Shown piece by piece: positions 1 through 55,554 of a stretch of DNA of 64,000 nt. The first letter of the stretch is position 1. Every line of letters starts with the position of its first letter. A program made the position numbers and the translations under genes. Under the pieces are notes generated by a model, which was not told the origin of the DNA, ran no database searches, and saw nothing but the letters and a program-made list of their open reading frames with translations. The stretch is from an uncultured bacterium (GTDB lineage Bacteria > Krumholzibacteriota > Krumholzibacteriia > Krumholzibacteriales > Krumholzibacteriaceae), in contig CBDUYR010000008.1 of the NCBI GenBank assembly GCA_965371515.1, positions 1 to 64,000 of the forward strand, read 5' to 3'.

Positions 1-9
1 ACGTTAGAC
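1..9 (+). mobile_element. R' end (AC-GTTAGAC) of an attC site truncated by the window start
   Basis: GTTAGAC at 3-9 fits GTTRRRY and is preceded by AC, like the R' boxes at 2679, 3342, 3779 and 4343. It is the exact reverse complement of R'' GTCTAAC (2587-2593), as expected for the two ends of one cassette. Confidence 0.7.
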
Positions 10-67
10 AAACAATATAAAGATTTGAATGACTACCTTTTGCATTATTGCGTAATTATTGATGGTA

Positions 68-96
68 TTGACGCCTGGTGTAAGTCGTGATAAACT
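68..96 (+). promoter_or_regulatory. sigma70-like promoter inside cassette 1
   Basis: TTGACG (68-73), 17 bp, TAAACT (91-96); an overlapping TATAAT lies at 96-101, upstream of the ATG at 123. Confidence 0.5.
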
Positions 97-122
97 ATAA
101 TGAAGGCCGAAAGGGGTAGATC

Positions 123-2459
123 ATGAATACCATATATGGCAAGATGTCTGCGTTAAGGACAATCACTCCTCACTGTCTATGCGTCTTGTTGCTGATTCTG
201 TGCGGATCCTTTTTCGCCATTGATCTTCAAGCCGACACCATCCCGGACGTCGACTTCGTGATACTCAGGCTGGATATTCAGACGTACGCCATAAAAGGCT
301 ACTACGAGTTTTCGCAACCGTATCACAAGTCGTTTCCGGAAGAAGGCTATACCAGGGCGGGCAACGTCTTCTACCGCTTCGTCTATCCGTCAGATATGGG
401 CTTTCTCAGCGTAGACAGCAGGCTCACGGGAGAGCATCTCGTAGACGCATCTACCATATATTGGGGGATGGGCTCTTTCGATTACCCCCCGGATTCACTT
501 CTTCTGACCGACTATGAGGACGGCTTCGTCAATCCGCCGCCGGACTCTCTTACCTATGTTAAGCTCTTCTTGTACTCTCCGGAGTATGCCGATTCGGCTT
601 GGGCCAGCGTGCAGGGGACCGACATTATAAGCAGGCTGGCGGCGCAAGGTGCTTATGAAGTCGTTCTTTTTGATTTTTTCTACAGTGTAGGCCCATATGA
701 TTTTTCCACGGCTGAATGGATAGTGATAGCCTTCACACATCCTCCAGCCCCGGATGATATCGCGCTTCTCAGCCTGGAATGGCCGAAGACGGTGGTCACC
801 GGAAGTATCGATTTTGTCCCGGAGATCGTGGCACACAACTTCAGTGACCGTGCCCTTGAGGTGAAAGCGACGCTGTCTATAACAATAGGCGGGGGGCCAG
901 CGGGAGAGTGGGAGGTGACGCTGGATCCTCTGCCGGCCGATTCTTCGCACACAGTGTATTTCGATACCCTGATGATCGAGGACCTCGGAACGGCCGACAT
1001 GGCATTCGAACTGGTCAATGCCGACGGCTCTCCGATGCTCGATGCTTATCCCGATAACAACAGCATTCTGCGGGATATTGAGGTGATCGAACTGCCCGTA
1101 TTCAGACTCAGGTGCTCGACATCGTCTCCTGGATCGATTCCCTTACAAGGAAAGGCACTTGACTTCGACGACGACGGGGACATCGATATCGTACAGTTCA
1201 GCAGCCCATCCTTCCTGCTGTGGCAGAATGACGGCTCCGGCAATTTTACTGATATCACTGGTCTATCGGATATCTCATATCCGACCTATACCAACGCAAG
1301 CGAGGCGATTGCAGAGGATTTCAGCGGTGACGGACACTGCGACCTTCTGGTCGTTACCAACGGCAGTGCGCCGGGATACTTTCTGGGGGATGGGACAGGC
1401 GTCTTCTCAGACGCGACAGGTGCCAGCGGACTGTCCGGTGTGATCGCCAGCTCCATAATGGCAGCGTTCGATAAGGAAAACGATGGGGATCAAGATCTCA
1501 TCATCCGGTCTTCCGGGGGGGGACTGATACTCGAGAACGACGGTTCCGGATATTTCACCGATGTCACGGGTTCCTCAGGTGTCGTCGATCCGGCTCAGAC
1601 CGAGCATATAACGGCAGGGGATATCAACGGAGACGGATACACGGACCTGGTGTTTGCCAACTGGAATGACCTGTCAACCGCCTTCATCAATAACGGGAGC
1701 GGGATCTTTTCGGAGTTCACCGGCCCATGGTCTTTCGAGCACGCGAGGAGCGTCCTCATCCTGGATTACAACCTGGACGGGGCTAAGGATATCCTGTTCG
1801 CGCGGGCCCTGTACAGTGATCCATCCCTGCTGTACAGGAACGACGGCGGTCTCTCCTTTGTCGAGATATCCATGGCGTGGGGAGGGCTGCCGCCGGCATT
1901 CTCCGCAGCGACCGCGGATTTCGATGAAGACGGCATTCCGGATCTACTCCTGGAGGAACTGGATGAGTTGTCACTCCTGATGTTCGAGGGCGAAGAATAC
2001 GTCGATCATACGGAGCTACTGGTAGACTACAGCGGGCATCTTCCCACGTCTCCCTCGTCGAGGCCTCAGTTCGTCGATCTCGATGGAGACGGCGATCTCG
2101 ATATATACTCACTCTTTATCTATCTCGAGAACCAGGGAGTCACCCGTATATATACGGACGATGAGTATACCCCTCTTCCAGGACCATGCGTGCTGCACCA
2201 GAACTATCCCAATCCATTCAATCCGGCTACGATCATCAGGTTTGACCTGCCGCGTTCGGGACATGTTAAACTGAGCGTTTACAATGTCAACGGCGCGCTG
2301 GTTTCTACCATCACCGATCGTCATATGAAAGAGGGGCGAAAAGAGGTCACCTGGGATGCCAGGGATAGTAGAGGCAATCCTGTTGCCAGCGGAATCTACT
2401 TCTGTCGTCTCGTCGCCGGTGATTTCTCCCAGACCAGAAAGATGGTATTGTTGAGATAA
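123..2459 (+). CDS. Secreted FG-GAP/VCBS-repeat beta-propeller protein with C-terminal T9SS type A/FlgD-Ig sorting domain (gene cassette 1)
   Basis: N-terminal hydrophobic signal; repeated DxDxDGxxD motifs (DFDDDGDIDI, DINGDGYTDL, DYNLDGAKDI, DLDGDGDLDI); C-terminus LHQNYPNPFNP...VASGIYFCRL...TRKMVLLR. Confidence 0.85.
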   Translation: MNTIYGKMSALRTITPHCLCVLLLILCGSFFAIDLQADTIPDVDFVILRLDIQTYAIKGYYEFSQPYHKSFPEEGYTRAGNVFYRFVYPSDMGFLSVDSRLTGEHLVDASTIYWGMGSFDYPPDSLLLTDYEDGFVNPPPDSLTYVKLFLYSPEYADSAWASVQGTDIISRLAAQGAYEVVLFDFFYSVGPYDFSTAEWIVIAFTHPPAPDDIALLSLEWPKTVVTGSIDFVPEIVAHNFSDRALEVKATLSITIGGGPAGEWEVTLDPLPADSSHTVYFDTLMIEDLGTADMAFELVNADGSPMLDAYPDNNSILRDIEVIELPVFRLRCSTSSPGSIPLQGKALDFDDDGDIDIVQFSSPSFLLWQNDGSGNFTDITGLSDISYPTYTNASEAIAEDFSGDGHCDLLVVTNGSAPGYFLGDGTGVFSDATGASGLSGVIASSIMAAFDKENDGDQDLIIRSSGGGLILENDGSGYFTDVTGSSGVVDPAQTEHITAGDINGDGYTDLVFANWNDLSTAFINNGSGIFSEFTGPWSFEHARSVLILDYNLDGAKDILFARALYSDPSLLYRNDGGLSFVEISMAWGGLPPAFSAATADFDEDGIPDLLLEELDELSLLMFEGEEYVDHTELLVDYSGHLPTSPSSRPQFVDLDGDGDLDIYSLFIYLENQGVTRIYTDDEYTPLPGPCVLHQNYPNPFNPATIIRFDLPRSGHVKLSVYNVNGALVSTITDRHMKEGRKEVTWDARDSRGNPVASGIYFCRLVAGDFSQTRKMVLLR

Positions 2460-2586
2460 GGACCTGTTGAAGCAGGTCGATGCGATTCCAATTGTATATC
2501 AAGGGACGGAGCATCCTTAGAACGACACGAATCCCTTGATCCAAATAGTGGTTTATACATGCAATATAGATTGTTATAAATGTGAT

Positions 2587-2685
2587 GTCTAACCATAGCA
2601 TGCAGCTGCCGGACTTCGGCTTCACGGCCCATGCAGAACAAGGGCCGTGAAGCCTGGCGACCGCAGCTGAAGCTGAACGTTAGAC
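2587..2685 (+). mobile_element. attC recombination site 1 (99 bp)
   Basis: R'' GTCTAAC, 5 nt, L'' CATGCAGC ... L' GCTGAAG, 6 nt, R' GTTAGAC. There is a perfect 13-bp inner stem GGCTTCACGGCCC/GGGCCGTGAAGCC (2618-2630/2642-2654) and an extra G in L''. Confidence 0.9.
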
Positions 2686-2698
2686 TCGTTATAAGGGC

Positions 2699-2727
2699 TT
2701 GACAAATAACTACAACGTACATACAAT
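2699..2727 (+). promoter_or_regulatory. sigma70 promoter of the TA cassette
   Basis: TTGACA (2699-2704), 17 bp, TACAAT (2722-2727); the toxin ATG is at 2737. Confidence 0.8.
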
Positions 2728-2736
2728 ACATTTAAC

Positions 2737-3030
2737 ATGGATATAGAGTTCACATAGGATCCTGGTAAAGCACGTTCAAACGAACGCAAGCATGGCGTAT
2801 CATTTGAGGAGGCCGTGACAGTATTCGTTGATGAAAACGCTATCTTGATCCCTGACCCCGATCATTCTGGTAATGAAGATCGGTTTCTTCTCCTTGGTAC
2901 GAGTTTTAAGCTCAAGACCCTGATGGTCTGCCATTGTTATAGGAGACAGAATGAGGTTGTCAGGATCATTTCCGCTCGTAAAGCCTCGAATGCAGAGAGG
3001 AAACAATATGAGCAAAGGTGGAAGAAATGA
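2737..3030 (+). pseudogene. brnT: BrnT-family (DUF497) ribonuclease toxin with in-frame TAG at codon 7
   Basis: Translation from ATG 2737 gives MDIEFT*DPGKARSNERKHGVSFEEAVTVF...EDRFLLLG...VRIISARKA. TAG (2755-2757) sits where the family F-x-W-D motif has Trp (TGG). Confidence 0.8.
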
Positions 3031-3242
3031 GAAAAGAATATGATTTCAGCAAAGGGCAAAAGAACCCGTACGCTGCCAAGCTGAAGAAACAGATTACGAT
3101 TCGTCTGGATGATCTGACTATTAACTATTTCAAGGATATGGCTAAAGAGACAGGGATCAAATACCAGACGCTGATTAATCTGTACCTCAGGGACTGTGCT
3201 TCACATAATCGCAAACTTGCGATGAAGTGGCTCAACAAGTAA
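3027..3242 (+). CDS. brnA: BrnA-family antitoxin (DUF4415-like, RHH)
   Basis: MRKEYDFSKG...KKQITIRLD...YFK...GIKYQTLINLYLR; ATGA overlap with the toxin stop at 3027-3030. Confidence 0.85.
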   Translation: MRKEYDFSKGQKNPYAAKLKKQITIRLDDLTINYFKDMAKETGIKYQTLINLYLRDCASHNRKLAMKWLNK

Positions 3243-3249
3243 GCGGCGA

Positions 3250-3348
3250 GTCTAACGGCCGTTTACAGCTTGCGGTCTGGGCTGTCACGGCTGCTGCGGA
3301 GCACCCGCCGCGCCAGCTTTACGACCGCAGTTGAAGCACACGTTATAC
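3250..3348 (+). mobile_element. attC recombination site 2 (99 bp)
   Basis: R'' GTCTAAC (complement of GTTAGAC at 2679), L'' TTTACAGC, L' GTTGAAG, R' GTTATAC; begins 7 bp after the brnA stop. Confidence 0.85.
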
Positions 3349-3365
3349 AGACATAGGGGAACGAC

Positions 3366-3740
3366 TTGAGTGACAAGACCGGCCTTCTCGAGACATTCGA
3401 TAAATTTCGAGAAGCCTTGTTCGCCAATGACGTGAAAACGCTGAATTTGTTGATGGCAGAGGAATATGTCGGATATGATCCTCTTGGTAATCCACAAGAT
3501 AAAGATATGTCTCTTGATGCATACCAACCTGGTGCTGTAAAGCTTGACAAATACGATGTTGAGAATGTGGAATCAAGAGTGATCGGCGAGGTAGGGATAA
3601 TCACAGGCAAAGGTTACATTCACGGTACATTTGCTGGATCAGAGTTCGAGCATAATTTGCGGTTTCTTGATCTATTTATTCATCGAGAGGGCAGGTGGCA
3701 GTTGTATCTGTCACAAGTGACACCAGTAAGGGCAGTATAA
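3366..3740 (+). CDS. DUF4440/NTF2-like family protein (gene cassette 3)
   Basis: 124 aa with NTF2-like pattern (A...D...L..L.AEEY...G...; RFLDLFIHREGRWQL); the stop codon lies inside R'' of attC3. Confidence 0.8.
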   Translation: MSDKTGLLETFDKFREALFANDVKTLNLLMAEEYVGYDPLGNPQDKDMSLDAYQPGAVKLDKYDVENVESRVIGEVGIITGKGYIHGTFAGSEFEHNLRFLDLFIHREGRWQLYLSQVTPVRAV

Positions 3741-3785
3741 CCGTCGCTTGCAGCTGGCGCCCGCAGCTGAAGCACAACGTTAGGT
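3735..3785 (+). mobile_element. attC recombination site 3 (unusually short, 51 bp)
   Basis: R'' GTATAAC (complement of GTTATAC at 3342), CGTCG, L'' CTTGCAGC, 11 nt, L' GCTGAAG, CACAAC, R' GTTAGGT. Confidence 0.85.
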
Positions 3786-3807
3786 GAAGGATAGAGGAGA
3801 ATATGGG

Positions 3808-4248
3808 ATGAGGTATTTCAACGCCGTGATCTTATTGATGATGGTGGTCTTTCTCACAGCTGCGAACGACGAAATATCACCAAGGGATCTTCCTGTAGAA
3901 TCCTTTGTGCTGGTAGAAACTGCAGATATAAATGCTCGAATCGTAGCTGCCGTTGAATCTGGTGATGATTGGCCCTTTGACCCTGTATCAGTTGCTTTTG
4001 AGTTTCTTGGTTCAATGGAATATAGATACGTCAACATCGAGAAAAACGACGACATAGAATCTCCAAATAACACCATAGTTACGATAATTCGAGGTGGATT
4101 GCTTGATGATTCCGTTTGGGGCACATGGGACCAATTACAGTTGTCAAGAACCCCAAAAGGAATATGGCATGTCGACGAAGCGAGAAGGGCATGGCGATGT
4201 TATCGCGGACATCAGAAAGACTCATTTGGGAAGCGACTGTGCTTATAG
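3808..4248 (+). CDS. Small secreted hypothetical protein (gene cassette 4)
   Basis: RBS GAGGAG upstream; signal peptide MRYFNAVILLMMVVFLTA; GLLDDSV motif and C-terminal Cys pair (WRCYRGH...RLCL). Confidence 0.7.
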   Translation: MRYFNAVILLMMVVFLTAANDEISPRDLPVESFVLVETADINARIVAAVESGDDWPFDPVSVAFEFLGSMEYRYVNIEKNDDIESPNNTIVTIIRGGLLDDSVWGTWDQLQLSRTPKGIWHVDEARRAWRCYRGHQKDSFGKRLCL

Positions 4249-4255
4249 AAAGAAC

Positions 4256-4349
4256 ACCTGACCATCACTTGCAGCTGGCGGTTTTGGCTGCCACGGCTGC
4301 TGCGGAGCACCCGGCGCACCAGGGCCGCCACTGATGCTGCACGCCAGGC
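4256..4349 (+). mobile_element. Degenerate attC site 4
   Basis: R'' ACCTGAC (expected ACCTAAC), L'' CTTGCAGC, L' ACTGATG, R' GCCAGGC (GTT changed to GCC). It shares GGCTG(T/C)CACGGCTGCTGCGGAGCACCC with attC2. Confidence 0.7.
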
Positions 4350-4392: not shown

Positions 4393-5373
4393 ATGAAATA
4401 TCGCAAATTAGGCAATACAGACTTAAGAGTATCAGAAATTGCGGTAGGCTGTTCCGGATTCTGGGGAAACCAAAGATTTTCTGAAAGCAAGGCTGCTGCA
4501 ATAATTCACAAGGCATTTGAACGTGGAGTCAATTTATTTGACACTGGTCATAACTACAGTAATTATTTTGCAGAGCCCCGGTTAGGGCGCATTATCAAGG
4601 AAATACTGTCAAGTCATGATAGATCACGTCTGATTATTTCAACAAAAGCGGGTACAGTTATTCCTTCAGCAAATATCTTTTCTATGCGGAAAGGTGCTTC
4701 CAAGGATTTCTCTCCAGATTATATTGAAAGCTCATGTGCTGCATCAATTCGTAACTTGAATTGCGACTACCTGGATATATTCCAACTCCACGGCATTACC
4801 GAATCACAACTCATTGAGCCACTGATCGAACGATTACTATCCATGAAAGAGATGGGTATGTTTCGCTATCTTGGTGTAAATACACACAGTGAGAGTGATA
4901 TGATGTTTTTATCAAAGCATCCGGAAATATTCGACATGGTTTTACTTGATTACAATGTACTCCAGCTTGACCGTGAACCCATAATCCACAAGCTGCACAT
5001 GTCGGGGATAGGAGTTGTTGCAGGGACCGTTCTTGCGCAAGGTCATTTGGTTAAGGGGAAAATCGGATCGCTTAAAACGGTTGCGGATATCTGGTATTTG
5101 GCACGAGCACTACTTAAACCTACTGGACGCCTTCTGTTGAGGAACTCAAAAGAAATGAAGGAAACACTATCATTAACAAGTGAAATGAATGGTGCACAAG
5201 CAGCATTCGCATATATTCTGGGAAATCCGGATATTTCAAGTTGTGTATTTGGTACCACGAATATTTCACACTTGCATGACATTATCGATGCAACTGATAA
5301 GACTCTTGAAGAGAGTTCCAAGGTTGCGATACAAAAATCATTTGAGGTGCTCAAGGAAAGTATCAGTAACTAG
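4393..5373 (+). CDS. Aldo/keto reductase
   Basis: MKYRKLGNTDLRVSEI, FDTGHNY, IISTKAG, DYLDIFQLHG motifs; visibly AT-rich relative to core genes. Confidence 0.9.
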   Translation: MKYRKLGNTDLRVSEIAVGCSGFWGNQRFSESKAAAIIHKAFERGVNLFDTGHNYSNYFAEPRLGRIIKEILSSHDRSRLIISTKAGTVIPSANIFSMRKGASKDFSPDYIESSCAASIRNLNCDYLDIFQLHGITESQLIEPLIERLLSMKEMGMFRYLGVNTHSESDMMFLSKHPEIFDMVLLDYNVLQLDREPIIHKLHMSGIGVVAGTVLAQGHLVKGKIGSLKTVADIWYLARALLKPTGRLLLRNSKEMKETLSLTSEMNGAQAAFAYILGNPDISSCVFGTTNISHLHDIIDATDKTLEESSKVAIQKSFEVLKESISN

Positions 5374-5405
5374 CCCTTACCTGGAATCCAGACCCGACGT
5401 AGAAT

Positions 5406-6014
5406 ATGGAAAATCATTCCACAAACGAGACATTGAAGACGATCCATCGAAGACGGAGCGTACGCCAGTTTCAGGATACGCCTGTCGAAGACTCGCTAAT
5501 ACAGGCTGTTCTTGACGCTGCCAACCAGGCTCCATCCGCACATAACAAGCAATCGTGGCGGTTCATCGTCATCAGGGATGAGAAGAAACAGCAGTTAGCT
5601 CAACTCGTTTCGCAGAAAGCCTCCGGGTTTCCCAAGCCGTCCTCGGCAATCCTGCGAATGGCGGCACGGACTGTAATCAGCGCACCGGTCGTCGTTGCTG
5701 TCATGAACACAGGAGCGCTTATTCGCCACGGCACCGAATTATTCAATATTGAAAATGATGTGTCCGGAGATTTTTTCCGGACGATGGAAATCCAGAGTTC
5801 AGCCGCCGCGGTTGAGAATCTTCTGCTTGCGGCGAGTTCGCTCGGTCTCGGGAGTGTATGGCTTGGCATCCTGTATTTGATCAAGGATGACGTTTTAGCG
5901 TTTCTGGGAGAAACCAGGGGTGAGTTCATGGCCGTCATTCCTCTTGGCTATCCGCAAAGAGGCCATGATGGGCCCAGAAAAAAAGCGTTGGAGTATGTTG
6001 TCAAGAATATTTAG
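5406..6014 (+). CDS. Nitroreductase family protein
   Basis: RRSVRQF, APSAHNKQSWRF, NLLLAASSLGLGSVW, IPLGYP motifs. Confidence 0.9.
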   Translation: MENHSTNETLKTIHRRRSVRQFQDTPVEDSLIQAVLDAANQAPSAHNKQSWRFIVIRDEKKQQLAQLVSQKASGFPKPSSAILRMAARTVISAPVVVAVMNTGALIRHGTELFNIENDVSGDFFRTMEIQSSAAAVENLLLAASSLGLGSVWLGILYLIKDDVLAFLGETRGEFMAVIPLGYPQRGHDGPRKKALEYVVKNI

Positions 6015-6064
6015 CGTCGGGAGACGGGGCTGCCCCGGCTGATTTAAGGAGGACATTTTCGATT

Positions 6065-6529
6065 ATGGTGGTTAAAATCATCACTCGTTGCGCGATTACA
6101 TTTACAATGCTCATTTTTCTGGCATGTGCTGAAGGTCCAGGAAATGACCGGGAGACCTCAAAGGGAGATGAACTCATGAGTCAGGCAGAACATGACCGGC
6201 GGGTGGACTATATAGAGTTTCCGGCCGAGGACATTGTAGAGACCAAACGGTTTTACTCAGAGGTCTTCGGTTGGGAGTTCACTGACTATGGGCCTGATTA
6301 CATGAGCTTCACCGACGGACGAATAGCCGGCGGATTCAGTACGGCGGCGGAGGTGCCGGCAGGCAATCCATTAGTCGTGATCTATTCCACGAACCTCGAA
6401 GAGATCGAAGCCCTGATCAGAGAGAACGGGGGAAAGATCGTCGTGGAGATATTCGAGTTTCCGGGTGGACGACGCTTTCACTTCACCGATCCGAGTGGAA
6501 ATGAGCTGGCAGTCTGGTCGGATCGATGA
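6065..6529 (+). CDS. VOC/glyoxalase family protein (alternative start 6176)
   Basis: VDYIEF...TKRFYSEVFGWEF...FPGGRRFHFTDPSGNELAVWS. Confidence 0.85.
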   Translation: MVVKIITRCAITFTMLIFLACAEGPGNDRETSKGDELMSQAEHDRRVDYIEFPAEDIVETKRFYSEVFGWEFTDYGPDYMSFTDGRIAGGFSTAAEVPAGNPLVVIYSTNLEEIEALIRENGGKIVVEIFEFPGGRRFHFTDPSGNELAVWSDR

Positions 6530-7041
6530 TTTCCAGACAGAACAATACCGGTGACGGGTCAAGAGCTGAGAATGAAGCTGTAGGACTCTGGGTCTGGCTT
6601 GTGCCCGCGGTGTACATTGTCCACGTCGTGGAAGAGGCATTCGGGGGACATGGTCTCATGGAATGGATGGCTGCCGGAGGAGGAGTCCGGTTGTCACTGT
6701 CGGAGTTTCTCGGCATCAACCTGGTCGGCGCAGGCGCTTTGTGCCTGGCTGCATGGACAGCCCGGAGGTGGAAGGTCTGTCGGTGGCCTCTGGTAAGCGG
6801 AGCAACGATCTTTATCGCAAACGGCATCTGGCACATTGCCATATGTGTGATGACGCGATCGTATGTCCCGGGTGTATTGACGGGACTTCTGCTCTATATT
6901 CCCGTGGGCTGCGTTGTGATGTTCCGGCTGCGGCATCTTGTATCGCCGAGATCTTTTTTTATTGCTGTAGTCATCGGTATGGTGATCCACGGGGCAACGA
7001 TATGGCTCGTGCTGCGGATGCCCGGTTTTGAGATGGGATGA
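6526..7041 (+). CDS. HXXEE-domain membrane protein
   Basis: HVVEE motif, NGIWH, YVPG motif, several TM segments. Confidence 0.8.
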   Translation: MISRQNNTGDGSRAENEAVGLWVWLVPAVYIVHVVEEAFGGHGLMEWMAAGGGVRLSLSEFLGINLVGAGALCLAAWTARRWKVCRWPLVSGATIFIANGIWHIAICVMTRSYVPGVLTGLLLYIPVGCVVMFRLRHLVSPRSFFIAVVIGMVIHGATIWLVLRMPGFEMG

Positions 7042-7445
7042 TCATGGACTGGAAAAACAAAAGAAGACTCCTCGCGACAAACGTGCTCTTGTTCGCGCTG
7101 CTGTTTCTGCTGGTGACATTCAACAAGGAGTATCTGAGGCCGGCATTCAGCCATGTTCCAATCGTGGGGATCATCACCGGAAGCTTGCCCAATTTTTTAG
7201 CTGCCTACATAATAAGTCTTGGTGTTGTTAACGCGGTCGTTTCAAGAAGGCCGGAACATGCACGCCTTTTCGTATACATCTGTTCCTCCCTGGTGTTCCT
7301 GGTATTGACCATTGAAGAATTCAGACCGATGTGGGGTGCCAGTACGCAATATGACCTGTTCGATATACTGGCAAGTGGAGCCGGTTCATTGACAGCAATA
7401 TTAATGTATGAGCTGATTGTCCGGAGTCGTAAAGACAAAGGATGA
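7038..7445 (+). CDS. Hypothetical membrane protein (VanZ-like pattern)
   Basis: Four hydrophobic segments; GSLPNF, IEEF and YDLFDILAS motifs. Confidence 0.6.
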   Translation: MIMDWKNKRRLLATNVLLFALLFLLVTFNKEYLRPAFSHVPIVGIITGSLPNFLAAYIISLGVVNAVVSRRPEHARLFVYICSSLVFLVLTIEEFRPMWGASTQYDLFDILASGAGSLTAILMYELIVRSRKDKG

Positions 7446-17318: not shown

Positions 17319-17729
17319 GTGAGCGTGTTCACTCATTTTGCCGCCGGAGCACTTGCCGGCGCGCTTATTGCAAATCCGATCGCGGCTCCGTTCGTCGGTC
17401 TGAGCAGTCACCTGCTGCTCGATATGATACCTCACAGGGATTTCGAGGATTACCGTCTGGAGATTGTCCTGTGGGTCATCTCGATGATCGTCCTGTTCGC
17501 CGGCGGGGCGTACAGCATGGCCATAGTTCTGTGCGGACTCTTCGCCGTCCTTCCGGATTTCGAGAACCTTCTCTGGAAGACGGGAAAGATCCGTGACGAC
17601 CAGAAGATATTCCCCGGGCACAGGAAGGGACTTATCAGGCATGGAAGAAAGACCGGAACGTGGAGCATCGTTCTGCAGGTCGCATTCACGGCGGTTGTCA
17701 TCGTGTGGATGATCAGGAGGAACGGATGA
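17319..17729 (+). CDS. Small membrane protein with metal-hydrolase-like His/Asp motifs
   Basis: THF..GA, SHLLLDMIPH, LPD motifs; hydrophobic. Confidence 0.6.
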   Translation: MSVFTHFAAGALAGALIANPIAAPFVGLSSHLLLDMIPHRDFEDYRLEIVLWVISMIVLFAGGAYSMAIVLCGLFAVLPDFENLLWKTGKIRDDQKIFPGHRKGLIRHGRKTGTWSIVLQVAFTAVVIVWMIRRNG

Positions 17730-20700
17730 AGAAACTTCCGATACTGCTTTTGATCGCCATGCTCGTTCCGGCCGCCGCCGGGGCGGGACAGTGGCGTATC
17801 GTTTCAGAGAATGACACTGGAATAACCGTCGAGTTCACCACCGGCCGTTACGCTGTTTCGAGGGCCGGAGGGGAAGATGGCGCAGGCGCGATCGTCCGGA
17901 TATCCGGATTCACGCAGGAGAGGATACCGGGCATGCCCGTGCTGCCCGTCAAAAGATTTCTGATTGAAGTGCCGGCTGATCGAAGAATCAGGCTTCAGGT
18001 GCTGGACAGCCGGATCGTATCGATAGAAGATGTTGTACCTGAAGTCTGGTCCGTCGACGGCGATCCCGCCGTAGGCGCCAGGAGACCGGCCGAGGAGAAC
18101 GTCCCTGCAGCTGCGAGGGATTTCGCCATGCTCGCGTCGGTGGAGATACAGAGGAAGAGAAGGCTGGCGCTCGTCGACATATATCCAGTTCTCACCGATC
18201 AGGAGAACGGGCGCCTGCTCCACGCCGAGAGGATAGTCGTCAGGCTCTCCTGGGCTCCAGCGCGGCCGGCTTCGGGCAAGCGTCCCGCGCCGAGGCCCGA
18301 GGACCGCTACGTCATCGGGGCGGGCAGGTGGACCGTCGTCGAGGACAGGCCGGCGCTCGAGGCCCCCGGTCAGAGGACCCCTTTCGAGTTCGCTCTCTCC
18401 GACAAGTGGCTGAAGCTGACGATGGAGGACACGGGACTTTACAGGATCTCGTATGAGGACATGACCAGAGCCGGTGTCAATCCGCAGGACATCGATCCGG
18501 CGACCGTCCGCATATTCACCGCCGGCCCGCTGCAGCAGCCCGACAGCACGAGACAGGGTGGGAGTTTCGAGGAGGAGTACCATCTCTCCGAGGTCGATCT
18601 TCACTATTCGGGAGCCAATGCGGGCTCGATGATGCCCGGCGAGTATTTCATCTTCTACGGTCTCGGGATACGCGGATGGACCGACTATCTCGATCCTTCG
18701 GCCGAGGAGATCCACTTCTACAAGCACAAGTACTGTGATAACAGCGTATACTGGATGAGCTGGAGCGGTTCGTTCGAAGGACAGCCTGCAAGGGTGCAGA
18801 GCAGGGATGTCTCTCCGACCGGCTCGCCCGACCTCGAGGTCACGACATGCAGTCACCGTATGCACGTCGAGCGGGACGGGCTCTACGATCCGATACACAC
18901 CGACGATTTCTGGTACTGGAGGCGCCTGAACGTGGGCACGACGGTATTCAACGACGAATTCCAGTGCGCAGACGTCGCCGGCGGAGCCGGGATGGTCAGG
19001 ACTCTCGGCTACGGCCCATACATATCCAGCAACAATCTCAACGCCGCCGACTGTTACGTGAACTCCGAGTACGCGGGCCACATGAGCTGGATAGTCTATT
19101 CCGATTTCAGGCCGGACACTATCGAGGCGGCCGTGAGCTCGATCGTGGAAGGGGCGAACAACTTCAGGTTCACCAAGATCTCCGACGACGTGATGTACGT
19201 CCTATGGTACGAGATATTCTACGACAGGCATCTGAGGCCGATCGACGGGCGGCTCGATTTCCTGGCGCCGTCCGATACGCGCATTGCCGCTGTCACTATG
19301 AACGGATTCCCGTCGGCGGAGGAACTCTTCCTGTTCGACGTCACCGACCACACCGGTCCGGTACGGCTGACCGGATGGCAGAACGATCTGGGAGAGGTAG
19401 TCTTCGAGGACATGCTCGAAACGGTCCCGCTCCACTATCACGCTTCCGCCGCGTCGGCCCTGCGCACCCCGTCGATCGCGATCGAGAGCATGTCGCCGGG
19501 AGTGTTCCCCTCGCTGAGGGACGAGACTCCTCCCGACATGATCATAGTCTATCACCGCAATTTCCGGGACGCGGCGAACCGCCTGGCGGCTCATCGCAGG
19601 AACAACCTGCCTTATTCGAGCGATCCGGTCGTGAGGGCGGTCGATATCGAAGACATCTACAACAACTTCTCCGGAGGGATGAAGGATCCGCTGGCAGTCA
19701 GGAACTACCTGAAGTTCCTATACGACAATTTCAGCGTTGGCGGCTCGCCGGTGATCGATTACGCGCTGCTCATCGGAAACTGTACCTACGACGCGAGGGA
19801 TATACTAGGACGGTCGAACGATTTCGTGCCGGTCTTCATCAACGTGAAGTACGGGGGCCAGGGAATCGAAGACGACGATTTCCTCGTCAAGCTCGATACG
19901 GGCTTAGATTGGGCGATCGACGTTGCCATCGGCAGGATGCCCGTGCTCACGCGCAGGGCCGCCGACAACTGGGTCGATCGCGTGATAAGGTACGAATCGG
20001 AAATCGACATGGGGACCTGGAGAAACAGGGTGATCATCGTCGCTGACGACGAACACTCAACACACGGCGACAACGATTTCTATTTTACGGAAGATGCCGA
20101 ATGGATGACGGCCGACGACGGCCCGATCCCGAGATTTGTCGACTACAGCAAGATATACCTGACGCACTATCCGTTCGTCGGGGACCTCAAGCCCGACGCG
20201 ACCAGTGACCTGCTCGAGGATTGGTCGCGCGGCGCTCTCGTAGTCAGCTATGCGGGGCACGGATCGCCTCAGCAGCTCGCCGACGAGAGAGTGATGCAGA
20301 TGTCCGACCTGTATTCCCTGATGAACGGAACAAAGCAGCCCCTCTTTCTCGCTTTCTCCTGCACCGTAGGCGACCTGGAATCTCCATATCACAGGAGCAT
20401 GGGGCAGGAGATCACTGTCCTCGACAACGGCGGGGCCATAGCAGTGATCGCGGGAGTTGCTCCTACGTATCCGATCCCGAACAAGGAACTGAACTACATC
20501 TATTTCGACTATCTTTTCACGGGCGGGGACAGCACCGCGACTGAGCCGATCGGTACCGCCCTGATGATGGCCAAGACCGACAGCAGGACCTACATTACTA
20601 ATGCGAGGAACAACGCAAAATACGTCCTGCTCGGAGATCCAGCGCTCACGCTCACCCTTCCGGGGCACATGGTCGAGCATAATATCGCCGCCATAGACAC

Positions 20701-21697
20701 GATGGGAACGGGGGGCAGGTATACGCTGAGCGGCAACGTGACAGAGGGAGGAGAAATCCTCTCGACCTTCAACGGCACGGCGGAGATCGTGGTCCAGGAA
20801 TCGATGGAGATGGTAAGCAAGGAGTACATCGATTACAGGGATTCCTTGAGGATGCTCGAATACAGGCTCCCGGGCAAGGATCTGTTCAGAGGCTCGGTCG
20901 ACGTTACCGCCGGCAGATTCGATCTCGACTTCGTGATACCGGTAAGGTGCAGGACAGGATCGAGGGCGAGGGTCCGCTCGTATGTCAGCGAGGCGGGGGC
21001 CGACGGTGTCGGCGGCGCCGACACACTGGTAATCGTAACGTCAGGGACCGTTCCGCCGAACGAGGCACCTCCCGACATAGACCTCTACTTCTCCGGCCAG
21101 GCGACGAAAGTGAAGAGGGGGGCTGTCCTTGTAGCCGAGATATCGGACGACGACGGGATCGCCATCCTCGGCACCGAGCCGCAGAGCTCGATCTACTTCG
21201 AGTTCGATCGCAGCGGCTATCCGATATTTGTGACGCAATACTTCGAATATGAACATGGTTCCTCGACGACCGGGCGCGTCGAGTATCCTCTTCACTCCGG
21301 TTTCGAGCCCGGCGAGCACTCCGTGATAGTCAGGGCATTCGACAACCTCGGCGAATCGGCGACCGACACCCTCTTCTTTGAGGTCGTCGAGGAGGGCCTT
21401 TACACGGTGAGCGATGTATTCAACATGCCCAACCCGTTCACGGAATCGACGAATTTCGTGTTTCAGCTGAGCAGCAGGGCCGATGTATTCCTGCGCGTGT
21501 ATAACATCTCCGGCATCGAGATATGGAACGCCGAGCTGGCAGCTGAAGAGGGGTTCAACAGTATTTACTGGGAGGGACGGGATTTCATCGGTGACCGGAT
21601 CGCGAACGGTACGTATATCTACGTTCTCGAAGTATCCTTCAGGGATTCCTTCAACCGCAGCGAGACGGTGACCGGGAAGGCGGTACATCTCAGATAA
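17726..21697 (+). CDS. porU: PorU-like C25 (gingipain-family) sortase with propeptide and C-terminal FlgD-Ig/T9SS tail
   Basis: Start ATG 17726 after AGGAGG; signal peptide; G.P.LPV propeptide; IYNNFSGG..DP.A.RNYLK, IGRMP, YAGHGS (catalytic His), FSCTVG (catalytic Cys), LLGDPA; FNMPNPF...IANGTYIY tail. Confidence 0.88.
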   Translation: MKKLPILLLIAMLVPAAAGAGQWRIVSENDTGITVEFTTGRYAVSRAGGEDGAGAIVRISGFTQERIPGMPVLPVKRFLIEVPADRRIRLQVLDSRIVSIEDVVPEVWSVDGDPAVGARRPAEENVPAAARDFAMLASVEIQRKRRLALVDIYPVLTDQENGRLLHAERIVVRLSWAPARPASGKRPAPRPEDRYVIGAGRWTVVEDRPALEAPGQRTPFEFALSDKWLKLTMEDTGLYRISYEDMTRAGVNPQDIDPATVRIFTAGPLQQPDSTRQGGSFEEEYHLSEVDLHYSGANAGSMMPGEYFIFYGLGIRGWTDYLDPSAEEIHFYKHKYCDNSVYWMSWSGSFEGQPARVQSRDVSPTGSPDLEVTTCSHRMHVERDGLYDPIHTDDFWYWRRLNVGTTVFNDEFQCADVAGGAGMVRTLGYGPYISSNNLNAADCYVNSEYAGHMSWIVYSDFRPDTIEAAVSSIVEGANNFRFTKISDDVMYVLWYEIFYDRHLRPIDGRLDFLAPSDTRIAAVTMNGFPSAEELFLFDVTDHTGPVRLTGWQNDLGEVVFEDMLETVPLHYHASAASALRTPSIAIESMSPGVFPSLRDETPPDMIIVYHRNFRDAANRLAAHRRNNLPYSSDPVVRAVDIEDIYNNFSGGMKDPLAVRNYLKFLYDNFSVGGSPVIDYALLIGNCTYDARDILGRSNDFVPVFINVKYGGQGIEDDDFLVKLDTGLDWAIDVAIGRMPVLTRRAADNWVDRVIRYESEIDMGTWRNRVIIVADDEHSTHGDNDFYFTEDAEWMTADDGPIPRFVDYSKIYLTHYPFVGDLKPDATSDLLEDWSRGALVVSYAGHGSPQQLADERVMQMSDLYSLMNGTKQPLFLAFSCTVGDLESPYHRSMGQEITVLDNGGAIAVIAGVAPTYPIPNKELNYIYFDYLFTGGDSTATEPIGTALMMAKTDSRTYITNARNNAKYVLLGDPALTLTLPGHMVEHNIAAIDTMGTGGRYTLSGNVTEGGEILSTFNGTAEIVVQESMEMVSKEYIDYRDSLRMLEYRLPGKDLFRGSVDVTAGRFDLDFVIPVRCRTGSRARVRSYVSEAGADGVGGADTLVIVTSGTVPPNEAPPDIDLYFSGQATKVKRGAVLVAEISDDDGIAILGTEPQSSIYFEFDRSGYPIFVTQYFEYEHGSSTTGRVEYPLHSGFEPGEHSVIVRAFDNLGESATDTLFFEVVEEGLYTVSDVFNMPNPFTESTNFVFQLSSRADVFLRVYNISGIEIWNAELAAEEGFNSIYWEGRDFIGDRIANGTYIYVLEVSFRDSFNRSETVTGKAVHLR

Positions 21698-21822
21698 CCG
21701 TTTGTCAGAAAAATGCTTATCACTGCGGGGAAGCATTTCCCGATAGAGGCAAAATGCTTGACCCGGAAGTTTTCAGATACTTAATTTACTTATAGAAGAC
21801 CAACAAAAAGGAGAACCGGAAT

Positions 21823-22818
21823 ATGGCAAGAACGAGAAAGCTGATCATAATCTCATTGTTCATCATCGCAGCCGCATCTTCAGCGGCGTTCGCACAGGGA
21901 GAATCAGGAGCGGGCAGCCTCATAATCCCTCCTGGGGCGAGAGCCAACGGGATGGGCCAGAGTTTCGGGGCGATCGCCGATGACGCGACCGCTATGTGGT
22001 GGAACCCCGCCGGGATGGCGTTCATCGACCATCACGCCATTGACCTGATGCATTCGCAGCTCGTCCCCGATCTTGCCTCAGACGTCTTTTTTGAATATAT
22101 AGGCGGTATTTACAAGATAGAGGGCTTAGGAACGATCGGATTCGCAATACAGTACCTGACGTACGGCGAGTATACCGTGACCGGTACTACCCCCGAGGAG
22201 CTGGGAACCGCGTCGGCGTGGGAGATCTCCCCGATGATCGGCGGTGCGGTGAAACTGGGCGACCAGATCTCTCTCGGAATGAATCTGAAGTTCGTATACA
22301 TAAGCCTCGCGCCGGCATGGGCCACGATTGAGGGCACTTCGGGAACGGGAAGCTCCGTCGCCGTCGATTTCGGCGCATTGTGGAAGATCCCCGATTTCGG
22401 CGTGAGCAGCGCCCGGATCAGGAGGCTGAACCTCGGCCTCGCCGTCTCGAACCTCGGACCGTCGATCACATACATAAACAGAGACCAGGCGGCTCCCCTG
22501 CCGAGAAATCTCAGGGGAAGCGTAGCATGGGCTCCGGTATGGAGTGAAGTGAGCAAGTGGTACATCACGGGAGAAGTCAACAGGCCGATGGTCGACTTCG
22601 ATCGCTCCAACACGTACCATTTCGGGACAGAATTCATTTACTCGAACCTGATCGCCTTGCGTCTAGGGTATGTCTACGACAAGGATGGAAATGTCGAATC
22701 AGTGACCTACGGTCTCGGATTCGTATTCAATGACAAGGTAAGGATAGATTGGGCCAGCGTTCCGCAGGACAAGGACCTCGCGAGGGTCCACCGCTGGTCT
22801 CTAGGCGTCAACTTCTGA
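21823..22818 (+). CDS. porV: PorV/PorQ-family outer-membrane shuttle barrel
   Basis: L.IPPGARANGMG....A.ADDATAMWWNPAG signature; NLGP.I.Y......PLP; LRLGY; C-terminal F. Confidence 0.85.
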   Translation: MARTRKLIIISLFIIAAASSAAFAQGESGAGSLIIPPGARANGMGQSFGAIADDATAMWWNPAGMAFIDHHAIDLMHSQLVPDLASDVFFEYIGGIYKIEGLGTIGFAIQYLTYGEYTVTGTTPEELGTASAWEISPMIGGAVKLGDQISLGMNLKFVYISLAPAWATIEGTSGTGSSVAVDFGALWKIPDFGVSSARIRRLNLGLAVSNLGPSITYINRDQAAPLPRNLRGSVAWAPVWSEVSKWYITGEVNRPMVDFDRSNTYHFGTEFIYSNLIALRLGYVYDKDGNVESVTYGLGFVFNDKVRIDWASVPQDKDLARVHRWSLGVNF

Positions 22819-27900: not shown

Positions 27901-28821
27901 ATGAAAATTCCATCTATTCTCGCACGTATTCTGCTGTGCATGGCCGTCTTCCCTGCGGTTCTGCATGCGCAGGAGGATTCCACCTCGATCGTCACTGAAG
28001 ATGTTCTCCGGGCCGAACGGCTCGATATCGTCCTTGGCGCCGATGAACTGAGAGAACCTCTCGGGCTTGCCGTTGACGACAGGGGATTTGTCCTCGTCGC
28101 CGATGCGATGGCGGGAAAGATATACAGGTATTCGCAGGACGGCACATCTCTCGAGTTCGAGGTGCCCCATCTCGACGCGGGGTTCTACCCGATAGACGTG
28201 GCAGCGCACGGCACGTTCGTGTATGTCCTGGATTACGCGGGAAACAGGATATTGCGGTACGAATACAAGGGGGCCTGGCTCGACGTGCTCCTCGACTTCT
28301 CGCTCTTCGAGCGGATGAAACCCGCATCCCTCACGAGCAGCACTGGCGGGAGGCTGCTGACGACCGACCTCGAAAATCACGATATCACGATATGGTCGCC
28401 ACTTCTCGATGTGGAGATAAGGACGGGCGAGTACGGCTGGGCCGACGGAAGTTTCGAGAAACCGGTGAAGGCGGCCCTTTTCGGCGACGAGAGGATCGCG
28501 GTGGCCGAGTTCGGGAACTCGCGCGTACAGATCCTCGGTGGCGCGGGAGGCTTCGAGGGTTATGCAGTCCTCGCGGACGGCATGGAGATTAAATCCCCGC
28601 GCTATGTGTGCGGCGGGCTCGACGGCTATCTGTTCATCGCCGATCCGGGAGCGGGTCTCGTCTACGCTTTTACGCCCTCTCTCGATCATGTGCTGACGAT
28701 AGGCGGGGGAGAAGGGATCAGGCCCTCCGCTGTGGCGGCCTCGTGGGACTACCGCCTCTACGTCGCCGACCTGAATACGAGGTCGATTATCGTGTACCGC
28801 CTCGACTACCCCGGTAAATGA
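27901..28821 (+). CDS. Exported NHL-repeat beta-propeller protein
   Basis: Signal peptide; repeats EPLGLAVD..G.VLVAD, PIDVAA, GSFEKP...IAVAEFGNSRVQI, LYVAD. Confidence 0.8.
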   Translation: MKIPSILARILLCMAVFPAVLHAQEDSTSIVTEDVLRAERLDIVLGADELREPLGLAVDDRGFVLVADAMAGKIYRYSQDGTSLEFEVPHLDAGFYPIDVAAHGTFVYVLDYAGNRILRYEYKGAWLDVLLDFSLFERMKPASLTSSTGGRLLTTDLENHDITIWSPLLDVEIRTGEYGWADGSFEKPVKAALFGDERIAVAEFGNSRVQILGGAGGFEGYAVLADGMEIKSPRYVCGGLDGYLFIADPGAGLVYAFTPSLDHVLTIGGGEGIRPSAVAASWDYRLYVADLNTRSIIVYRLDYPGK

Positions 28822-31800
28822 TCATGATCTCCTTTCGACTCCAGGCAGCCGTTCTTCTGACTATCCTGGCCGCAGGACCGCTCGCGGCTGAGGAGGGAGG
28901 GAACCTCCGCGTGATGGCTCCCGTACGGGACCATTACGTCGAGTCGAGGAGGATCGCGCTCTCGGAGGGAGAGACCCGTATCGATCTCGGCGTGTCGTTC
29001 ATCATAGCCGGGAGCGACTCGGTCGCCATGGACGGATTGCCCCTTCAGAGGGGAACCGGTTACAGGATCAATATTCTCAAGGGAACGCTGATACTCGTCG
29101 AGCCACCCGTCGGTGGTGAGATACTGGAGGTCCGGTGGAAGAGGTATCCGTTCGCCTTCGCCCCCGTCTTTGCCTCGAGATTCCCCGGGGAGAGGCCTCA
29201 GCATGAGGTCACCATGCCCGCTCTGTCCGCAGCGGAGCCGGTGAAGGAAAAGGCGGTCAATCCGTACAAGCTGAGGCTGTCGGGCAACAAGACGGTCGGA
29301 TTCTCGGTCGGCTCGGGGAAGGATCTCGGGATAGACCAGAGCCTCAAGATAACGATGATGGGGAAGCTGGCGAAGGACCTCGAGGTGAGGGCGTACCTTA
29401 CCGATGACAACCTTCCCGTCCAGCCGCAGGGGAACACGGAAGAGCTGAAGCATCTCGACAAGATCGCCGTGCAGGTCAGGAGCAGGCATACCGAGACGAA
29501 CTTCGGTGATTTCACCAGCGGTCAGGACTGGTCGAGTTTCTCGAGATTCGAACGGGAGTTGAGAGGTGCCTCGGTCAAGGTGAACGCCTGGAACCAGGAG
29601 CTCTTCGCCGGCAGCGGTATCACGAAGGGCAGGTTCCAGACGGCGAGATTCTTCGGGACCGAAGGGGTCCAGGGGCCGTACGAGCTCCTCGACGCAAGGC
29701 GCTTCAACGGAGTCATCATCCTGCCGGGCACCGAGGTCGTCTATCTCGACGGCCGCCGGATGCGGCGCGGTGCGGAGAACAACTACGTCATAGATTACGG
29801 CAGGGGGACGATCACATTCACGGAGCGTGTGACGATAACATCCGACTCGGAGATCGTCGTCGATTACCAGAGCGGCGAGGACGGATACGGCAGGACGACA
29901 CTGACAGGCGGCTGGACGTCGCCCTTCGCCGGAGGCGCGGCGACGCTGAAGGGATTCTACTTCAGGGAGTCGGACGATCCCGACGATCCGGTCCGCGGCG
30001 TGATAACAGACGATGACAAGGAGATCCTCGCCGGGGCAGGAGATGATCCTTCGGAGGCGGTGGCCCCCGGCATCACGCCGGTCGAGGACGCGCTCGACGC
30101 CTACATCCTTGTTCCCGCCGACACGGTCCCCGAGCATTTCGAGTTTGTCGAGGAGGGAGGCGATTTCCTCGTCGACTTCTTCGATGCTGGAGAGGGGAAG
30201 GGCGACTATATCACCAACGGATTCACGAGGCGCGGCGCGGTCAAGTATATATACGCCGGCGCAAGTAAGGGAAACTACCTCGTGGGGAGGCCGCTTCCTC
30301 TGCCCGAGCGCAATGAGGTCTTCTCCCTCGGATTCGACGCGGCGAAGGGAAGCCTCTTTCTCTCGGCCGAGGGAAACCTGTCGCTCTTCGACGCCAACGT
30401 CCTCTCGAGCGTCGGTGACGAGGACAATCGGGGCGGAGCGCTGCGATTCAGCGGCGGGCTGAAGAACCAGGCGGTCGGCGCGAGCAAATTGTCGCTGCTT
30501 GCCGCGTATTCCGCGCTCGAGGAGAGGTTTCGCGCGCCCGACAGGGCGAGGGAAGCCTATTTCTACAGGAACTGGAACCTCACCGATGTGCCGCTCGAGG
30601 GGACGGAGAAAATCTCGGGTCTCACCCTGACCTGGGAAGGGGAGAAGCTCTGGAAGCTCGGAGGAAGTTACAACAGGCTGCAGAGGACGGGCGGCCCGGG
30701 GGCGCGGAAGACCGAGGCGTCCCTCGCGCTCGGGGACAAGGCCGACCGCGGGATCGAGGCGGCCGGGTACGATTCGAAGAACGACCTCGGGCGCGACAGG
30801 CGATATCTGCACACCGAGGGTGCGTTCGGCTTCTGGGAGCTCCTGCCGAGGGTCGTCTTCGACACCGAGAGGTACAGGTCGTTCAACGTGGATGCCCCCG
30901 ATACGGGCAGGTTCTACTACCAGAACATCTTCTCGCTCTCGAAGAGGAAGGCGGGAAGCTTCAGGGGGACGCTGTCGTACACGATGAGGAACACCGACAA
31001 GATGGAGACCGAGGGGGGGGGATGGTTCAGGGCGAGGGAGAACGATGAGATAAGGCTCGATGGAGGATACAGCTCGGGCGAGGCGATAGTAGAGGTGATT
31101 GCGAGCAGGAGGAACACGACGTACAGGGATACGGGCGCCTCGGGGAGACACGATCTCGGAAGGTTGAGGTACAGGGACGCCTGGTGGGCCGGCGCCGTAA
31201 CGAACGACGTGAGCTACAGGATCAGCTCGGGAGTCGACAGGAGGCTCGAGAAGGCGGTCGTATACGTCGGCGAGAATAAGGGAGACTACGACGAGGAGGG
31301 AAACGAGGTCGGGCAGAACAGGGGCGATTACATGGTCATCTTTCTTCCCGCCGAGGACGCGGTTCCCGTCCGCACGGTCGAACTTTCATGGAGGCTCAGC
31401 ATCGGCAGCGGCGTCCGCGGCCTGTCGCTCAGCCCGTCGTCCGATACCGGCAGGTGGCAGTGGATCAGGAAGAATGTCTCGGTCGACAACTTCTTCTCGG
31501 TCGTAGAGAGGTCGCGTACCGATGAACTGGCGAGGCTCTATCTGCTCGACCCGTCCCTCCTGCAGAGCGACGATTGGACGCTCTACGGGAAGAACAGTTT
31601 CAGGACCGAGTGGGGATTCCTCGGGGACGTGAAGGGGTACAACCTCAGGCTGATCTTCTTCAGGGAGGACGAGGAGGACAACCGGAGCGAGGACGTCTCG
31701 ATCGAGAGATATACGAGGGAGATACAGGGGAGGTTCGAGATGATCCCCGCAAGGACTATCACGCTGACCTTCCAGGGACAGACCTCGCTGAGTTCGCGCA

Positions 31801-47334: not shown

Positions 47335-47377
47335 CAATCATCGGTCGTGTATCACATAGGAGAGAAGAAGGAAAAAT

Positions 47378-48487: not shown

Positions 48488-48506
48488 TTCTGTAAGGGGG
48501 AAACCG

Positions 48507-49715: not shown

Positions 49716-49747
49716 AATCCGGCGACGTCAGGATCCAGAGGGAGAAG

Positions 49748-51496: not shown

Positions 51497-51545
51497 TCCG
51501 CCGCCGGCGGAGGACCATTTCGCTAAAATGGAGGATTATTGATAA

Positions 51546-52919: not shown

Positions 52920-53039
52920 TTTTGCAAACTGAAACGGAACCGGGCAATTATACACGTCAAAGACCGATTGCAGGGCGAGGGAGGAGGCCGTAATTCCCTG
53001 TAAAACAACCGATTGGGCAAGAAGGATCTTCTCCAACGG

Positions 53040-53056
53040 TTGGCACAGAAGATGCA
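53040..53056 (+). promoter_or_regulatory. sigma54 -24/-12 promoter of pilA
   Basis: TTGGCACAGAAGATGCA (GG-N10-GC); IHF-like AAACAA-CCGA-TTG at 53003-53015. Confidence 0.8.
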
Positions 53057-53178
53057 TTAAAAGTCTCGAGCCCCGAATCCGATGGCGGGGCACCAGGACG
53101 AGATCAACGGCTTTCGGGCCGTAAGACCGATGGACTGAAGCCCAAAAGGCTTCAACAGATTGTACCAGGAGGTGCAAG

Positions 53179-53613: not shown

Positions 53614-53637
53614 AGCTCGATAGACATCAAGTCGATC

Positions 53638-53670
53638 AAGGGGCGGCTCACGCGGGCCGCCCCTTTCTTT
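53638..53670 (+). terminator. Intrinsic terminator after pilA
   Basis: AAGGGGCGGC...GCCGCCCCTT followed by TCTTT. Confidence 0.85.
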
Positions 53671-53679
53671 ATGCCCGGT

Positions 53680-53766: not shown

Positions 53767-53793
53767 CGGTTAAGGCAGTAAAGGGGCAGGAAT

Positions 53794-55553: not shown

Positions 55554-55554
55554 G

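Follow-up and report, generated by a model that had tools for sequence, protein, structure and literature searches.

Does a gene enter an integron as a copy of its messenger RNA (mRNA), stripped of its promoter, or as DNA with the promoter in place? The question is raised by the first cassette of the stretch analysed here (the window), the first 64 kb of contig C8 of G000, a 3.08-Mb, 99.6% complete genome of an uncultured member of the Krumholzibacteriota. This cassette carries a single gene, for a 778-aa protein with a type IX secretion system (T9SS) tail, and a predicted promoter of its own. Since transcription starts downstream of the promoter, the mRNA does not contain it, and the mRNA-copy model of cassette genesis accordingly predicts its loss. 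De novo cassette formation is described as largely unknown in PMC5371416, and PMC7923331 relates, at second hand, an intron-based model that works at the DNA level.

Here, we define the cassette, trace its gene to homologues outside integrons, and argue that it was probably captured at the DNA level, together with its promoter, from an ordinary gene on a chromosome of this lineage; judged on sequence comparison, we put the probability of this reading at about 60%. A sequence-only reading of the window had proposed that cassettes form from genes native to the lineage and that the integron acts as a plug-in system for the surface proteome. Its remark on native origin proved the most valuable part and is supported, as the other family members with known DNA are ordinary chromosomal genes.

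A single-gene cassette and its product

The cassette spans 2,676 bp (4-2679) and holds one gene, with crossovers between G3 and T4, in the core GTTAGAC at 3-9, and between G2679 and T2680. The inverse core GTCTAAC at 2587 matches the core at 3-9, and a further GTTAGAC lies at 2679. The attC site closing the cassette (2587-2685) carries R'' and R' cores downstream of the gene and folds into a bottom-strand hairpin of -31.8 kcal/mol (z -7.1), a value equalled by 0 of 200 shuffles. The window begins inside the preceding attC, which is completed by sequences from elsewhere. A contig from X1, one of three marine sediment metagenome runs (X1-X3) that contain the window DNA and may be its source, extends the window start by 20 nt, corresponding to the attC right arm. 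Locus L061, assigned to genome G208, is 100% identical to window 1-2457 and carries a complete upstream attC at 750-848, scoring 94.9 bits with a model trained on 14 sites of this class, the L061 site being outside the training set. The sequence-only reading had thus placed the cassette exactly, and the upstream hairpin that it needed is present. We do not claim transfer to another phylum from L061: mis-binning is the simpler reading because the contig is only 3.3 kb long, its attC is of the host type, and in X1-X3 the cassette has the same depth as the host. The SprA proteins of G208 and G000 share only 27% identity.

By eye, L061 160-750, just before the upstream attC, reads as a toxin-antitoxin-like cassette, which together with the pair at window 2699-3242 places toxin-antitoxin cassettes on either side of the large one; these may stabilise it.

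The gene (2,337 bp; + strand, 123-2459) encodes a protein with a predicted N-terminal signal peptide (~1-38), judged on hydrophobicity (hydropathy peak at aa 19-33; a single hydrophobic helix at aa 11-33 in the structure model), followed by an alpha/beta domain (~39-208), a beta-sandwich (~209-324), an FG-GAP propeller (~325-672), a linker and the tail (~690-778). Pfam FG-GAP_3 matched five stretches, and the tail exceeded the cut-offs of FlgD_ig PF13860 (36.5; cut-off 27), Por_Secre_tail PF18962 (28.1; cut-off 27) and TIGR04183 (35.1; cut-off 23), in agreement with the earlier description of a T9SS-tagged secreted FG-GAP protein ending in a T9SS/FlgD-Ig domain. The tail had also been likened to those of PorU and an M6 protease in the window; the likeness holds for the M6 protease (TIGR04183 27.9) and not for PorU (TIGR04183 16.7 of 23; FlgD_ig 21.4 of 27). 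An AlphaFold model built from 26 aligned sequences (pLDDT confidence score 85.6) comprises a signal-like helix, the alpha/beta domain, the beta-sandwich and the propeller, with the tail attached through a loose linker. Among solved structures, Foldseek placed it nearest to CRTAC1 and to GlcNAc lectins of fungi (15-19% identity; whole-chain template modelling (TM) scores of 0.28-0.38), and we infer from these matches that the propeller may serve in surface binding. The N-terminal domain had no Pfam or PDB-sequence match and Atlas matches of at most 0.80; its single-sequence fold reached a pLDDT of 32.5.

Origin of the cassette gene

Among 7,999 candidates scored, we identified 28 near-full-length relatives of the protein (37-83% identity, E values of 6e-140 or better), beyond which only shared-domain matches were found. 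The full-length relatives are labelled Candidatus Krumholzibacteriota/Krumholzibacteria, Latescibacterota or Eisenbacteria, and relative P0009 has its locus in a genome from the same family as G000. Seven distinct homologues come with DNA (L054; L050/L118; L055/L057; L062, with only 172 nt of upstream sequence; L063; L064; L065). The attC model, run with filters off, found no site around any of the seven, nor was there a core site at the matching place, and all seven have a promoter-like site scoring 8-11 of 12. L054, whose product is 72% identical, aligns over window 67-2470 at 76% nucleotide identity, from the -35 box to just beyond the stop codon, and is flanked by a divergent upstream gene and, directly after its stop, by a terminator hairpin. 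The -35 box could also be aligned in L050 and L055.

The predicted sigma-70 promoter of the cassette, TTGACG-N17-TAAACT at 68-96, scores 9 of 12 and is weak taken alone, because the scan turned up 11 sites of this quality where shuffled sequence gave 5.9 +/- 2.3. What supports it is that homologues conserve it, so the candidate promoter of the sequence-only reading stands on comparative grounds. The 3' tail is a borderline match to L054: 11 of 2,000 shuffles did as well for 2460-2551 (92 nt), and 160 of 2,000 for the whole tail. The leader (3-67) and tail (2460-2586) had no match in 125 loci or in G000 by a short-word search, which is insensitive because it also missed the known promoter match to L054.

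A quick tree covered 33 rows, 29 of them proteins and four locus translations (midpoint root; branch support by SH-aLRT, an approximate likelihood-ratio test, only). In it, the cassette protein clusters first with P0002 and P0006 and next, in this order, with P0003-P0005, P0007-P0009 and P0010/L055, with support of 98-100. It is nested in clades whose context-known members (P0005, P0009 and L055) are non-cassette, and since every other member of known context is likewise outside a cassette, parsimony makes the cassette the derived state. GC content at third codon positions (GC3) is 0.63 in the cassette gene, 0.59 in L054, 0.70-0.76 in five host core genes and 0.37-0.41 in neighbouring cassette genes. 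The gene is thus nearer to host core genes than to its neighbours, which agrees with a chromosomal origin. Because the promoter is shared with a non-cassette copy and would not be present in an mRNA, the cassette was likely made from DNA. This is the basis for the proposed capture at the DNA level.

Several observations weigh against this proposal. The closest relatives, P0002 (79%) and P0006 (83% over part), are without known DNA context, as are P0003, P0004, P0007 and P0008; several of these lie on 2.4-3.8-kb contigs and are possible cassettes. L054 ends 62 nt past its stop, too early for an attC, which here begins 128 nt past the stop, L055 is missing its 3' end and has no downstream sequence, and the attC model could overlook divergent sites. 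Upstream, homology to L054 ends at the -35 box, the preceding 65 nt being matched as well by 101 of 2,000 shuffles. The family is patchy, the N-terminal part being found in five of the 208 genomes of the phylum and in none of the six of the genus, and its neighbourhood differs each time, as expected of a mobile gene; two homologue loci stand, by eye, beside apparent transposase or integrase genes. L054 itself is not the direct donor because its homology ends at that box and 49% of four-fold sites differ. Finally, GldL, GldM and GldN of the secretion machinery went undetected, and GldK stayed below cut-off. A paralogue within G000 was rejected as donor, the best candidate being a propeller-plus-tail protein on contig C12 that is without the N-terminal domains.

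The main rival to capture reverses its direction. An old cassette family would have shed ordinary copies when IntI dropped them at secondary (attG-like) sites, their own promoter keeping them expressed while the attC was lost. Patchy spread and changing neighbourhoods suit such an escape, as do the attC sites that 101 of 150 related genomes carry, the site erosion seen at the far array end (attC 4256-4349), and cassette insertions outside att sites as described in bioRxiv 10.1101/2022.09.11.507474. It would, however, require an independent escape with full attC loss in each of seven lineages. No core site remains at the matching distance in any of the seven homologues, the L054 terminator follows immediately after the stop, and the GC3 of the cassette differs from that of the other cassettes in the array. 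We therefore consider escape unlikely. A different objection accepts a chromosomal donor and assumes an RNA copy of a longer transcript begun upstream, in which the promoter was carried along. G000 does encode three group II reverse transcriptases, the cassette gene is itself an intron target, and the 64 nt upstream of the -35 box are without traced origin. Yet read-through is not expected, the upstream gene being divergent in L054 and L055; the intron site lies in the stop codon rather than at a cassette boundary; and 46 nt separate the possible terminator remnant from the attC. We regard this route as quite improbable, and capture of DNA remains our preferred reading.

We also asked whether the cassette belongs to a library of interchangeable T9SS surface cargo. 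A tail model built on 42 T9SS-type tails of G000 counted 77 tail-bearing open reading frames (ORFs) there, fragments included, of which one is in a cassette. An array survey of 30 other genomes (29 of the phylum, picked by intI matches and best attC matches, plus that of L061; 50 loci) revealed 283 attC sites and 232 same-strand intervals of up to 4.5 kb with a median of 787 bp; cores matched in 151 of the 232, and 16 exceeded 2.5 kb, most with several ORFs or insertion sequence-like inserts. Only one interval contained a tail gene. Tail genes are thus not enriched in arrays, as they make up an estimated 2-3% or so of G000 genes (77 ORFs in 3.08 Mb). That one case, a 1,299-bp cassette in genome G064 (L085:11728-13139, - strand), is a point in the library's favour, since it is unrelated to the window cassette; its 343-aa product is LamG-like by eye and scores 24.1 with TIGR04183 (cut-off 23), the start codon lying ~60 nt after the crossover. 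So is the general enrichment of signal peptides in cassettes, 16.1% versus 6.8% (PMC10661359). T9SS cargo has entered cassettes at least twice, and rarely, with the window cassette at the long end. Given one interval in 232, one tail-bearing ORF in 77 and no enrichment, we judge a cargo library highly improbable, and the plug-in system of the sequence-only reading falls away; the large T9SS-cargo cassette is a rare case.

Two other loci deserve mention. The cassette L038:8700-9271 (+ strand, G007) encodes a 163-aa lipoprotein-like product consisting of one degenerate tail-like domain; it was not counted as a tail cassette (23.8 bits with our own model, no NCBIfam match). The 2.8-kb interval L082:1148-3954 (+ strand, G034), with ORFs of 677 and 144 aa, is a further candidate for a very large cassette.

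Integron, stop-codon intron and host secretion machinery

Three further attC sites follow the cassette, each closing a cassette whose core equals its inverse core, and the final one is eroded (Table 1). An intI gene intact of stops (TIGR02249, 470 bits; cut-off 265) lies on contig C31 of G000, 240 nt from the contig end and pointing at it. In G006, of the same genus, one contig carries groEL-panB-HIT-intI-array-nitroreductase-glyoxalase-HXXEE-surA-M23-dnaE-porU-porV, and because it joins both flanks we read C31 and C8 as one sedentary chromosomal integron with intI facing the array, a linkage made by synteny with G006 and not by a single G000 contig. The G006 array is without this cassette. 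Integrase matches at E 1e-60 occurred in 27 of 61 genomes; same-strand attC sites followed intI at 5 of 27 intI loci, and the other 22 had no attC match, many being short contig-end stretches.

At an attI-like point, C31:29206, the start of the first cassette is joined to the intI side and is also found preceded by an attC tail (joint region C31:29020-29259, L001). Contigs with the intI-side joint had depths of 11.1, 19.1 and 17.8 against host depths of 19.5, 49.1 and 39.1. These values, from short contigs of one study and blurred by a second attI-like copy on contig C9, fit rearrangement within the population. The C9 copy (C9:58931-59768, - strand) is 89% identical to the intI-attI region, lies by eye just after a tRNA-like gene, and is followed by an ORF and a worn attC, forming a small satellite array without integrase. 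No joint of the excised circle that the sequence-only reading proposed to look for was seen in the contigs; the sole joint back to position 1 was rejected because it carries the attC spacer of the neighbour and not the cassette's own, marking it as the upstream attC. Beyond the last attC, window 4393-7445 encodes an aldo-keto reductase, a nitroreductase, a glyoxalase, an HXXEE protein and a membrane protein with no sites between them. Four of the five hold the same place in G006, and they are perhaps old fixed cassettes.

Table 1. Features of the window that bear on the cassette, with positions, strand and evidence
Feature	Position	Strand	Evidence
3' end of upstream attC, R' core GTTAGAC, crossover between G3 and T4	1..9	+	remainder beyond contig start; completed by X1 and L061
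Gene cassette, 2,676 bp, single gene	4..2679	+	core and inverse core match; attC both sides
Predicted promoter TTGACG-N17-TAAACT	68..96	+	homologous to L054; 20/29 nt identical, 0/2000 shuffles equal
Predicted 5' untranslated region with purine-rich ribosome site	97..122	+	homologous to L054; 0/2000 shuffles equal
778-aa gene	123..2459	+	Pfam, NCBIfam, AlphaFold, Foldseek; domain limits taken from structure model
T9SS type-A sorting domain, YPNPFNP ... KMVLLR	2190..2456	+	TIGR04183, PF13860, PF18962 over cut-off
Insertion point, between T and AA of stop, where part of population carries a 1,981-nt group II intron	2457..2458	+	contig breaks, C148 ends, reverse transcriptase, Rfam
Inverted repeat without U-tract	2498..2540	+	possible remnant of L054 terminator; weak
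attC of large cassette	2587..2685	+	attC model, hairpin fold
Next cassette: BrnT/BrnA toxin-antitoxin, own promoter 2699-2727, attC 3250-3348	2680..3348	+	Pfam, promoter scan, attC model
DUF4440 gene and short attC 3735-3785	3366..3785	+	Pfam, attC model
Gene without assigned function and eroded attC 4256-4349, final array site	3784..4349	+	ORF, attC model
porU and porV-family gene	17660..22818	+	NF033707 559 > 420; NF033709 204 > 90; PorV equivalog 132 < 250

The stop codon of the cassette gene is itself a target. Contigs from X2 and X3 break between 2457 and 2458, with bridging contig depths of 23.8/46.4 and 17.7/38.7, and the loose ends match both ends of contig C148 of G000 (L113); the X1 contig is unbroken. 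C148 is a group II intron (TIGR04416 reverse transcriptase, 409.6 > 300; RF02005, 79.8 > 49; RF00029, 50.8 > 40), present in about half of the population in these two runs. It starts GAGUG, its first bases GA rebuilding a TGA stop, and its exon-binding site 1 (EBS1), in a hairpin loop, pairs with the 5' exon at 6 of 6 positions. A 93% identical copy in G009 (C7, L120) occupies the same place in another tail gene, and the one base by which its EBS1 loop differs fits the exon there. EBS1 cannot by itself decide the target, because 718 genome-wide sites fit EBS1 plus the next base; 11 of 74 tail-gene ends in G000 do so. Among nine intron reverse-transcriptase loci in relatives, L120 alone is flanked by a tail domain; the other eight (40-50% identity) are not, several being cut short. 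No relatives of the intron were found in viral contigs. As the intron is not at the cassette boundary, we draw no tie to cassette formation. The 7-nt flank of C148 points to a further insertion site, and G000 holds two more group II introns with reverse transcriptase genes (C125 and C153; L114 and L115).

Cargo of this kind would depend on the host, and the matching machinery supposed by the sequence-only reading is there in part. Besides PorU and a PorV/PorQ-family protein, G000 encodes SprA (468.6 bits > 200; C1, L117 5835-12368), and SprA scored above cut-off in 10 of 10 genomes tested. In five genomes, searches for GldL, GldM and GldN gave no match and GldK stayed below its cut-off; for GldM there was likewise no match in 208 genomes of the phylum or in 41 around G208. 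No positive control was obtained for these searches, and the components are to be taken as not detected rather than absent. The system is possibly a reduced or divergent T9SS with SprA, PorU and PorV-family components. At window 28818-32228, beside an Omp85/POTRA gene, a 1,136-aa protein without Pfam match contains a faint SprA-like stretch (17 bits), and similar weak matches occur in four relatives. Type IV pilus genes (PilB/T/C-like, PilS/R-like, PilMNO, secretin) lie at window 45628-62052.

Taken together, a sequence of events can be proposed. An ordinary chromosomal gene would have been captured as DNA with its promoter, giving a 2,676-bp cassette in a sedentary integron, and the promoter would free its expression from array position. 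The product would be exported by Sec and handed by its tail to SprA/PorV, a predicted route on which PorU would cut it and then anchor or release it, and the propeller would bind a glycan or protein surface. IntI could then excise and reinsert the cassette. The full picture, in which a promoter-to-terminator unit was cut as DNA and joined to an attC in a traceable case of cassette neoformation, its function plugging into SprA-PorV-PorU maybe without GldLM, is tentative, and we hold it at slightly less than even odds. If true, it speaks against an mRNA template for this cassette.

Comparison with known systems

With the sedentary chromosomal integrons the locus has in common an intI, attC hairpins with matching cores, toxin-antitoxin cassettes and a fixed position. 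In contrast, its gene is 2,337 bp long where the median for such cassettes is 362 bp (PMC5371416), the interval median in relatives being 787 bp, and here intI points towards the array. In some conditions, cassettes that reach 1.5 kb or exceed it are excised less (PMC5371416). Whereas the array of V. cholerae was reported to be functionally isolated (PMC11551772), the product here would rely on a host secretion machine, a counter-example to the view of cassettes as small add-ons that work by themselves, and no demonstration of a system for shuffling surface cargo.

The protein shares with the type-A T9SS cargo of Bacteroidota a predicted signal peptide, a C-terminal Ig-like tail (TIGR04183) and a host with SprA, PorU and a PorV-family protein. 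It differs in its Krumholzibacteriota host, in which GldL/M/N were not detected, and in its place on a cassette, a hint that the T9SS-like system of this uncultured phylum may work without the motor. A literature search in which most subscription journals were out of reach found no report of an integron cassette with T9SS cargo, and nothing on Krumholzibacteria and type IX secretion. The propeller has its repeat type and fold in common with those of CRTAC1, the Psathyrella lectins PVL and PAL, and integrin alpha heads, yet is only 15-19% identical to such proteins and is joined to an extra, unmatched N-terminal domain. As in Avi.groEL and EcKTE56.groEL (PMC12584367), the intron sits in a stop codon that it rebuilds; unlike them, it lies between the first and second stop bases, starts GAGUG, and resides in T9SS-tail genes rather than groEL. 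It also departs from the IIB1 start/stop-codon clade of Avi.groEL in having neither the second/third-base insertion point nor, by eye, the large 5'-subterminal insertion, there being no room for 300-700 nt because RF02005 begins ~40 nt into the intron.

Promoter-bearing cassettes, including cmlA, toxin-antitoxin cassettes and those of the V. rotiferianus array (PMC8876359), likewise carry a promoter within the cassette. Here, by contrast, the promoter has traceable counterparts in chromosomal homologues outside cassettes, which bears on how the cassette arose; we found no such tracing in the part of the literature that was searched. Pairs of cassette and non-cassette genes with alignable flanks can test models of cassette genesis, as mRNA copying would lose the promoter and DNA capture would keep it. 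The pair formed by this cassette and L054 keeps it, and shows which search to scale up.

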